Below, one piece after another: positions 8,901 through 11,900 of a DNA stretch of 64,000 nucleotides; the first letter of the stretch is position 1; the number at the start of each line of letters is the position of its first letter. Made by a program: the position numbers. Source of the stretch: Escherichia coli (lineage in GTDB: Bacteria; Pseudomonadota; Gammaproteobacteria; Enterobacterales; Enterobacteriaceae); assembly GCF_029227855.1 (NCBI RefSeq), contig NZ_CP074356.1; one strand, given 5' to 3'.

Positions 8901-11900
8901 GTACGTGGCTGGCAATAAACACCACAAACAGGCAGATCAGTAATTTGCGCCGTTCAACCTGGCTGGTCATTAACATAAAAGGCAATGACATTAGCGCTAC
9001 TACCCATGCGTAAATGGTCAACATAATGCCGACCTGAGCGGTTTGCATGTGAAAACTTTGCGCAATGTCAGAGAGCAGGCCAACTGGGACAAATTCGGTG
9101 GTGTTGAAGATGAAGGCGGCGACTGCCAGCGTAACGACCCGTAGCCACGCCACTTTGCGGGAAACAGTGTTTGTTGTCATAACAGATTATCGGGTGAGTT
9201 GCGAAAAAGTGATGAAATGATCTTAAAACGGTTAATGATGTGAATACAATGCATTTGTGATCTGGATCGCGTTTTCCGTTTCTCTGACGCTGATTCTTTC
9301 ACGCGTCAGAGAGTCGGTCACATCACGGTTTAATAACGTTCAGGGAGGTCTGGCGTTTTGGAGGTTGCGGGTATAGGTGGTCTGACAGGGGAGCGAGGCC
9401 TGTTTTTCACCAGGTCTTCATGAGTAACTTTTGGCGGCGTTTCATTTTTTACAAAAAGTTTGAGGGTCTTGCACGCCATATGTTTGATAATTTTATCATC
9501 ACTTAATGATGCTGGCATCAACACGTCAATCAAATCACTTTCATTGGGATTCATAAATTGGTGATAGTGCAATAACATATTGGCGAAAAATAAAAATAAG
9601 TCCTGAAAATGTGGAAAATCTTGTTCTGCTAAAATGGATAAAAAGCAGATGCAGACTTCGGGTAGTACATGTTTGTTAGAACCTAGTGAATCCATCAGAC
9701 TTTGCAATAAATCCTCTTTTAATTCGCTGTCCGTTATGTCGAGAATAGCGGTGAGCAAGTTAGGTTCTTTATTCCCGAACCATCTGTGAACCTCAGAGTT
9801 ATTCCATAATCGGGGGAGTATGACAAAATTACCGCGAGAGATAAAATTCAGGACAAGCAAATCAAACTGGCGTAAGTAATCTGCAGCGGTATGGTGATCC
9901 GGATGCAGGGGTTCAATATGTGGCGTATGCGCTCTTTTGATAGGAACGCCAGGGTTGATCATTGGAAATTGTTCAATAAAATCATTCAGAAACAGAAAGA
10001 GTACACGCTCGACGCCGGTCTGAAATACGCGCCCCATAGTGACAGGCTTTGGGTTGGGAGCGCAAAAAATATTAATTTCCCCATCATGGCGGAAATTATC
10101 TAAATAAATAGGGCTTAAATTTATTACTACCTGAAATTCAATATTTTCTTTGTGTCTTCCATTCCTGGCAGGATAAGTGAGTTTAAATTGAACTTTTTCA
10201 TTGTATAGCGTGTCGTTACCCCGGAAAGAGGTTCTCTGAATATATGATAAGTTATCAAGGTTATTAAATATCTTTTTTGTGGCTGAGCTGATGTTTAAAG
10301 ACGTACGCCACTCTTCATCACATATTATTGTACTTAGCGCATCAATAAAATCCTTTAAAACTTCTTTTACCTGAGGTGCAATATTACGAACGGGAAAATC
10401 ATCAGGAAGAGATATGTAATTGCTGATGCTTACTGGCGTAACCATATTTGCCCCATATAGTCATAAGTCATCGGAGCATCACTATATAGAGCATATTAGC
10501 CGCAAGAACTATCAAAAATAGCTCATTGCTAACTCTGTTTTGCCGAGTCAGACACATCCAGTAGTTGAATAAATGCCTCAAGCGGACGCGTTTTTGCACC
10601 GCGACGCCAGACCAGCCATGTTGTTAACCAACGCCATTGCTCAGCTAACGGCCACGCCTCAACCTGGTGATGCCCCGGCATACTTTCCAGCATAGAGCGT
10701 GGAATAAGCGCAATGCCTGCTCCTGCGACCACACAGGCCAACATCCCGTGATACGACTCCATCTCGTGAATAGTTCCCGGAGCGGCACCGTCAGCATGAA
10801 ACCAGCTCTCGAAGTGGCGACGATACGAACAATTGGCGCGGAAGGCATAAATGTTACTGCCATTAACCTGACTGGCGCGGGTTACTGGCGCATGTCCTTG
10901 TGGCGTGACGATCATCAGCTCCTCGCGGTACACCGGTATCCCGTCAATGGCAGTATGGTTAATGGGCCCATCAATAAACGCTGCATTCAGTTTTCCCTCC
11001 AGCACACCTTCCAGCATAGTGCCGGAAGGGCCGGTGGAAAGTGAAAACTGAATTTTGGGATAACGACGGTTAAATTCCGCCAGCGTGGCCGGAATGCGCA
11101 CTGCAGCGGTGCTTTCCAGCGAACCAAGAGAAAATAAACCTTGCGGCTCATCGCCAGCGACAACGCTCCGCGCTTCATCCACTAACGCGAGAATTTGTTG
11201 GCTATAGCGTAAAAAGTTATGCCCGGCAGGCGAGAGACGTAAACGCTGATTCTCGCGAATAAACAGATCAACCCCCAGTTCTGTTTCCAGCTGGCGTAGA
11301 CGGGTAGTGAGATTCGACGGCACGCGATGCACTTTTGCTGCAGCCTGGGTAATGCTGCCAGCTTCGGCAACCGCGTTGAACATCTCCAGTTGGGTCAGAT
11401 CCATAATATTCTCGATTCGTGAATAAGTGGCTTAATATTATTCATTTTAAAGCAAGAGTAAATCTGCGTATCTTTTTACCATAACTCATAAAGGAGATAC
11501 CCCGATGACCATTACTCCGGCAACTCATGCAATTTCGATAAATCCTGCCACCGGTGAACAACTTTCTGTGCTGCCGTGGGCTGGCGCTGATGATATCGAA
11601 AACGCACTTCAGCTGGCGGCAGCAGGCTTTCGCGACTGGCGCGAGACAAATATAGATTATCGTGCTGAAAAACTGCGCGATATCGGTAAGGCTCTGCGTG
11701 TCCGTAGCGAAGAAATGGCGCAAATGATCACCCGTGAAATGGGCAAACCAATCAACCAGGCGCGCGCTGAAGTGGCGAAATCGGCGAATTTGTGTGACTG
11801 GTATGCAGAACATGGTCCGGCAATGCTGAAGGCGGAACCTACGCTGGTGGAAAATCAGCAGGCAGTTATTGAGTATCGACCGTTGGGGACAATTCTGGCG

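Follow-up and report, generated by a model that had tools for sequence, protein, structure and literature searches.

The palindrome between ptrR and sad of Escherichia coli joins one arm of the published PtrR operator to an invariant block

LysR-type regulators such as OxyR, BenM/CatM, CbnR and AtzR act through an architecture in which a recognition site is paired with an activation site, and -65 is the classical position of a LysR recognition site that also serves autoregulation. We analyzed a 64,000-nucleotide stretch of Escherichia coli DNA (contig NZ_CP074356.1, assembly GCF_029227855.1; hereafter the window) that carries the gene of the LysR-type regulator PtrR (YneJ; also PggR), which diverges from sad (yneI). 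The analysis centers on a 25-bp palindrome, TGAATAA-N11-TTATTCA, in the ptrR-sad spacer, which a sequence-only reading of the window had taken for the LysR-type box of YneJ. PtrR shares with the four described systems a divergently oriented regulator gene, a high-affinity T-N11-A dyad near -65 in overlap with the promoter region of the regulator itself, a weaker site covering the -35 element of the target (a candidate in the present case) and conflicting repressor and activator behavior. It differs from them in that its second site, its transcription starts and an effector-driven shift are predictions.

Three groups have already connected YneJ with sad-glsB-yneG (PMC9068703, PMC8464067, PMC9283627, PMC11480449). 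Rodionova et al. (2022) predicted a 15-bp palindrome by phylogenetic footprinting, inside a 50-bp region defined by chromatin immunoprecipitation with exonuclease digestion (ChIP-exo), and reported that purified PtrR binds 5'-gggTTCTCGATTCGTGAAggg-3', that gamma-aminobutyric acid (GABA) releases it and that sad mRNA is higher in a ptrR mutant (PMC9068703). Gao et al. (2021) found sad to be the strongest YneJ ChIP-exo peak and termed YneJ a repressor of sad-yneH-yneG (PMC8464067). Gagarinova et al. (2022) observed enrichment at the spacer by chromatin immunoprecipitation and quantitative PCR, showed that YneJ binds the same 15-mer with enhancement by glutamine, and, as the mutant contained less sad-glsB-yneG mRNA, classed YneJ as an activator (PMC9283627). 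He et al. (2024) reported that an E97A exchange in YneJ raises Sad, GlsB and YneG (PMC11480449). Fluorescence-polarization binding to the operator TTCTCGATTCGTGAA has thus been demonstrated by two laboratories (PMC9068703, PMC9283627). The control of sad-glsB-yneG by YneJ that the sequence-only reading proposed is therefore established in print by immunoprecipitation, in vitro binding and mutant expression, and the experiments it suggested (binding in vitro and expression in a yneJ mutant) are already in the literature, with binding seen and sad expression altered. Since both this control and the operator had been published, the palindrome adds no new regulator, target or mechanism.

The published operator, TTCtCGATTCGTGAA with consensus TTCACnAATnGAGAA (PMC9068703, PMC9283627), resembles the palindrome in lying in the same spacer, in its regulator and target operon, and in containing the TGAA at 11420-11423. 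However, the operator is 15 bp long, is centered at 11416 and has the T-N11-A form, whereas the palindrome is 25 bp long, is centered at 11432 and reaches beyond the published probe. The elements concerned are as follows.

11409-11423, no strand assigned: PtrR/YneJ operator, site 1 (recognition site), TTCTCGATTCGTGAA, of the T-N11-A (TTC-N9-GAA) form, bound by purified PtrR.
11420-11444, no strand assigned: palindrome TGAATAA-N11-TTATTCA, exact in the window, center 11432.
11432-11448, no strand assigned: invariant block TTAATATTATTCAtTTT, i.e. TTAATATTATTCA(n)TTT, containing the TTATTCA arm.
11441-11455, no strand assigned: candidate site 2 (activation-type), TTCAT-N5-AGCAA, predicted from the sequence.

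YneJ does bind this spacer, as the sequence-only reading supposed, but the operator that was tested shares only the four base pairs TGAA with the palindrome. Regulator, target and operator are thus already known and the palindrome is mis-placed as a LysR box; for annotation, the box belongs at 11409-11423 and not at 11420-11444. The published PtrR probes cover 11409-11423, and the stretch tgctttaaaatgaataatattaagccactta, labelled 'YneJ binding area' in Fig. S8 of PMC9068703, seems to include the palindrome. That figure also draws two sites with the same spacing in the Serratia/Yersinia branch.

Scanning one genome per species yielded 80 loci whose PtrR orthologues show 80-98% identity. More than 15 genera are represented, among them Escherichia, Citrobacter, Kosakonia, Enterobacter, Klebsiella, Raoultella, Salmonella (arizonae and diarizonae), Kluyvera, Lelliottia, Phytobacter and Pluralibacter. 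Alignment A1 holds 81 spacer sequences, and palindromes were counted over the 80 distinct ones. At the single locus for which open reading frames were listed (L054, Klebsiella), sad and glsB diverge from ptrR as in E. coli, and at the remaining loci the divergent reading frame aligns with sad at its start. The flanking ptrR codons vary without constraint at their wobble positions, which shows enough divergence in the set for the comparison to be informative.

Both arms of site 1, TTCT (11409-11412) and TGAA (11420-11423), are invariant in 81/81 spacers, the adjoining C and G are kept in at least 90%, and four of the five dyad pairs hold in 74 of the 80 distinct sequences. With T11410-N11-A11422 and TTC-N9-GAA, site 1 has the features of a LysR recognition site. 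In the window it is also the sole strong match to the weight matrix built from it, with 26 bits compared with 11.6 for the runner-up, and the same scan found no second site-1-like match above 2 bits in the spacer or under the deposited ChIP-exo peak in ptrR.

The palindrome takes in site 1's right arm, then a variable stretch, and reaches into the invariant block at its start; it consists of TGAATAA (11420-11426), the 11-nt spacer GTGGCTTAATA and TTATTCA (11438-11444). The arms match at 7/7 positions in 15 of the distinct spacers, at 6/7 in 26, at 5/7 in 34 and at 4/7 in 5. TGAA and the entire TTATTCA never vary, whereas twelve forms, including TGG, CGG, CAA and TAG, occur at the inner TAA of the left arm (11424-11426), and the right arm shows no change that would compensate for them. 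The additional TAA/TTA match is limited to some lineages, mainly Escherichia and Enterobacter. The right arm thus belongs to a strongly selected element, and the palindrome as a unit is not selected, because it is perfect in only 15/80 spacers and lacks compensating changes. We read the palindrome as a probable by-product of a divergent LysR-type layout rather than as a binding unit.

The element that contains the right arm is better conserved than the center of the PtrR operator itself: within the block (TTAATATTATTCAnTTT), 11 of the 13 positions from 11432 to 11444 are invariant or at least 90% conserved, and most of TTAATATTATTCA is invariant. In the Serratia/Yersinia branch, TGAATAAT stands 13 nt from site 1, exactly as it does in E. 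coli. T11446 is likewise invariant in all 81 spacers, as are the isolated positions A11454, A11460, A11470 and T11474, and T11447-T11448 and A11451 are kept in at least 90%. A motif found by MEME in the yneI promoter region, AATATTATTCATTTT (PMC9283627), equals the invariant block and includes the TTATTCA arm; there it was noted as an enriched motif only, without a link to a palindrome.

The block also coincides with predicted core promoters. Shimada et al. (2014) found that the spacer is selected in vitro by sigma-70 holoenzyme alone and listed the hexamers TTTAAA-17-TATCTT for sad and TTTACT-17-AATAAT for yneJ (PMC3946193). Placed on the window, the proposed elements are these.

11446-11451, plus strand: proposed sad -35, TTTAAA (TTTTCA in most genera), as listed in PMC3946193; T11446-T11448 and A11451 at least 90% conserved.
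11469-11474, plus strand: proposed sad -10, TATCTT, as listed in PMC3946193; A11470 and T11474 invariant.
11435-11440, minus strand: proposed ptrR -10, TAATAT (alternative AATAAT, 11437-11442), within the invariant block.
11457-11462, minus strand: proposed ptrR -35, TTTACT, as listed in PMC3946193; kept in Escherichia and Citrobacter only.

The proposed sad -10 hexamer has its key A2 and T6 at A11470 and T11474, which are invariant inside an otherwise variable stretch. For ptrR, the spacer from the -35 element in the actual sequence measures 14 nt with AATAAT, 16 nt with TAATAT and 17 nt with AATATT (PMC3946193 gives 17, for AATAAT), and the predicted geometry fits better with TAATAT and a 16-nt spacer. 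From these hexamers we infer starts near 11481 for sad and near 11428 for ptrR. Site 1 would then be centered at -65 from the sad start, a position that rests on predicted hexamers, and would cover +6 to +20 of ptrR; the center of the palindrome would fall at -49 from the sad start. At the scan thresholds, neither a terminator nor a strong consensus promoter was found in the spacer.

Candidate site 2 lies over the proposed sad -35. Its center is 32 bp from that of site 1 and would be at -33 from the predicted sad start. The pair T11442-N11-A11454 is invariant in 81/81 spacers, and the candidate is the best position of a symmetrized site-1 matrix in 53 of the 81; the plain site-1 matrix gives no match there in E. 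coli. Its form differs by lineage.

E. coli: TTCAT-N5-AGCAA.
Many genera: TTCAT-N5-AGAAA.
Klebsiella and Raoultella: TTCAT-N5-ATGAA, a perfect dyad.

In position the candidate is homologous to the second group-2 site in Fig. S8 of PMC9068703; the upstream Serratia/Yersinia site described there ends in the TGAA of TGAATAAT, 13 nt from site 1 as in E. coli. Together, site 1 and the candidate give half-sites at about 0, 10, 31 and 42 bp, a pattern predicted from the sequence that resembles the extended (reduced) OxyR arrangement.

On balance we lean, by a little, toward a composite explanation in which a standard divergent LysR layout of site 1 and candidate site 2 leaves the palindrome as a by-product. 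PtrR would occupy the 15-bp site 1, where its binding has been shown in the literature and whose center would be some 65 bp upstream of a weak promoter of sad of the sigma-70 type. Since site 1 would lie just downstream of the ptrR start, PtrR bound there would repress ptrR itself. Another dimer of the PtrR tetramer would sit on the degenerate site that covers the sad -35, three helical turns (32 bp) away from site 1, and its occupancy would hold sad off until an effector-induced change of the tetramer frees or recruits RNA polymerase at the weak promoter. The left arm of the palindrome would combine site 1's GTGAA arm with three unconserved bases, and its right arm the TTCA arm of candidate site 2 with part of the ptrR -10. 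Because both sites would be built from TTCA/TGAA half-sites, their facing arms would automatically be reverse complements. Such a two-site model could reconcile the repressor and activator reports as well as the gain of expression caused by the effector-domain substitution E97A. The narrower proposal that the invariant block is a second PtrR contact, and that tetramer switching driven by GABA or glutamine on four TTCA/TGAA-type half-sites explains the repressor/activator split, is tentative, and we would put it at somewhat below even chances.

Several observations weigh against the composite explanation. Candidate site 2 scores weakly with the matrix (mean -6.8, null P 0.0036; -11.0 in E. coli; maximum 1.8 in any orthologue). 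The sad and ptrR hexamers each match the consensus at 8/12 positions, below the 9/12 threshold of our consensus scan, and were hence not called, although promoters that depend on a regulator are expected to score in this way. A search for sad and ptrR starts in the supplements of Cappable-seq and SMRT-Cappable-seq gave no hits, and the -65/-33 geometry rests on the predicted hexamers. The invariance of the block is explicable by promoter elements or by another protein without any contact by PtrR. With the same 15-bp probe, the published work describes on the one hand a repressor released by GABA and on the other an activator whose binding is enhanced by glutamine. Finally, the deposited YneJ ChIP-exo peak (PMC8464067; NC_000913.2 1612960-1612976; signal/noise 17.5) converts to approximately 11256-11272 of the window, 132-149 nt inside ptrR and outside the spacer; the genome-version offset was checked with the YihW peak, which falls in the yihU/yihV spacer. 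These coordinates disagree with the later Fig. S8 of the same group (PMC9068703), which marks the ptrR-sad spacer. Given their position inside ptrR and this contradiction, we rejected the deposited coordinates as a locator of the footprint.

If the 25-bp palindrome were itself the box for a PtrR dimer, an exact 7+7 repeat in the right spacer would be accounted for, as would the invariance of the outer TGAA and TTCA and the apparent position of the palindrome within the published 'YneJ binding area'. The statistical weight of the repeat is modest: a 100-bp region of such composition would hold at least one 7+7 repeat with a chance of 0.014 at spacer length 11 and of 0.13 at any spacer of 3-15. 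The exact TGAATAA-N11-TTATTCA pattern occurs once in the whole window, where perfect 7+7 inverted repeats with an 11-nt spacer number 15, against about 4 expected from first-order Markov simulations; others are found, for example, at 3054-3078, 34032-34056, 45961-45985 and 62670-62694. Geometry speaks against a box in that the inner edges, A11426 and T11438, form A-N11-T instead of the T-N11-A of LysR boxes. The distance between the arm centers is 18 bp and that between the conserved TGAA/TTCA cores about 21 bp; in LysR dimer sites, the tested TTC-N9-GAA among them, it is about 10-12 bp, and the core distance is therefore too long for one dimer. As a dyad the palindrome is not conserved across orthologous spacers, its three inner pairs being lost in 65 of the 80 without compensation in the right arm, and the published 21-bp probe, which contains nothing past 11423, was still bound by PtrR. 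We regard a box at the palindrome as improbable. An RNA or DNA hairpin (attenuator, terminator or cruciform) is more doubtful still and was rejected for its weak stem and lack of covariation: a stem of 7-8 bp can fold, but with only -4.8 and -2.5 kcal/mol (z-scores -1.9 and -2.5), one arm is variable while the other is invariant, the spacer scan revealed nothing terminator-like, and with the predicted starts the two arms would never be in one transcript.

The principal competitor of the composite model holds that the block is core promoter only, with the ptrR -10 and the sad -35 back to back and perhaps an AT-rich UP-like tract, that PtrR touches site 1 alone, and that the palindrome is a coincidence of AT-rich sequence beside the GTGAA arm. 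Selection of the spacer by the holoenzyme alone, with hexamers within the block (PMC3946193), agrees with this, as do the invariant key positions of the sad -10 and the poor matrix match of candidate site 2, and a 7+7 repeat at spacers of 3-15 is expected in 13% of such regions. However, thirteen contiguous near-invariant bases across more than 15 genera exceed what two weak hexamers usually need, and the distance of TGAATAAT to site 1 is exact even where the divergent gene is a transporter and not sad. LysR tetramers also usually protect 50-60 bp, and a 50-bp ChIP-exo region has been reported (PMC9068703). We hold this explanation to be unlikely, yet one to be taken seriously, with roughly a one-in-four standing. 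The block or the palindrome might instead be the site of another DNA-binding protein that acts on ptrR and sad, such as a nitrogen or arginine/polyamine regulator. TGAAT and ATTCA are half-sites of the ArgR box (ARG box, TGAAT-N4-ATTCA), and ATA...TAT resembles a Nac site. The responses of sad to putrescine and nitrogen limitation and the higher conservation of the block than of the middle of the PtrR operator would suit such a protein. Although the palindrome contains the same pentamers as the ARG box, here they are 15 nt apart instead of 4, and neither has a partner at the ARG-box distance; ATA (11423-11425), which is unconserved, stands 10 nt rather than 9 from TAT (11436-11438). The literature on sad that was examined reports no such regulator. 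We consider this explanation to have little in its favor, and ArgR, Nac and CRP readings of the spacer, compared with their commonly known consensus sequences, were rejected for misfitting spacings.

The invariant block with its TTATTCA arm may bear on the disagreement over whether PtrR represses or activates sad and which effector it answers to.

On the minus strand, the left arm of site 1 reads GAGAA (11409-11413) and lies 4 nt before the ptrR ATG. This GAGAA probably doubles as the Shine-Dalgarno sequence of ptrR, and the invariance of the left arm may for that reason have two causes; bound PtrR could occlude the region encoding its own ribosome-binding site.

The genes around the spacer were assigned from open reading frames and the RefSeq annotation, with Pfam domains as given.

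10529-11404, minus strand: ptrR (yneJ; also PggR), LysR-type regulator of 291 amino acids; Pfam HTH_1 and LysR_substrate.
11402-11404, minus strand: ptrR start codon, read as CAT.
11505-12893, plus strand: sad (yneI), succinate-semialdehyde dehydrogenase, ATG at 11505; Pfam aldehyde dehydrogenase.
12957-13883, plus strand: glsB (yneH), glutaminase B; Pfam glutaminase.
13883-14242, plus strand: yneG, DUF4186 protein; Pfam DUF4186.
14381-15799, plus strand: diguanylate cyclase gene; Pfam GGDEF.

The spacer between the divergent ptrR and sad is 100 bp long with 32% G+C, and the palindrome that the sequence-only reading described is present in it exactly. A 4-kb stretch around the palindrome is 100% identical to strain JNEC-KY178 and is found in 5420 of 5426 complete E. 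coli genomes. Two members of the spacer collection carry unexpected labels: a 'Caldithrix sp.' metagenome-assembled genome (L002), with a PtrR 98% identical to that of E. coli, and 'Chryseobacterium sp. 18061' (L036) both show typical enterobacterial ptrR-sad loci, which probably reflects contamination or mislabelling in public assemblies. Three others (L059, L070 and L076, from Raoultella and an Enterobacter-labelled contig) contain a 15-nt, ACATTGGTCATCA-like insertion (A1 columns 118-132) immediately upstream of the ribosome-binding site of sad, which none of the other genera has.

Downstream of the spacer, sad, glsB and yneG lie on the same strand; 63 nt separate sad from glsB, and glsB overlaps yneG by 1 nt. 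The overlap was correctly noted from the sequence: the glsB stop TAA (13881-13883) shares a base with the yneG ATG (13883-13885) to form TAATG at 13881-13885. With their shared strand, short or overlapping junctions and co-regulation by quantitative reverse-transcription PCR and proteomics (PMC11480449, PMC9283627), the three genes have the features of an operon. The overlap and co-regulation support co-expression of yneG with glsB, which is the part of the proposed link between YneG and the glutaminase/succinate-semialdehyde pathway that stands; a role in that pathway does not follow and is not corroborated. DUF4186 is a large family of 1563 clusters at 50% identity. At a homologue with 69% identity the order glutaminase-DUF4186-GGDEF is kept, whereas at three homologues with about 55% identity it is not and the neighbors are others. 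All ten of the long homologues checked are fused to other domains, namely DUF5131 (four), RecD/UvrD-like helicases of superfamily 1 (SF1), a UvrD helicase with a PD-(D/E)XK nuclease, NUDIX, GNAT or DnaJ. This sample, though small, points away from a dedicated glutamine or succinate-semialdehyde role, and the pathway proposal finds no support outside Enterobacterales. The predicted model of YneG is confident (predicted local distance difference test score, pLDDT, 93.7) and all-helical and has no fold relative among solved structures in the PDB. C79, C80, C83, H67 and H74 are invariant in the family and H88 is present in at least 90% of homologues; together with the fusions, these features suggest that DUF4186 is a metal-binding module related to DNA or nucleotides, and not a protein of the glutamine pathway.

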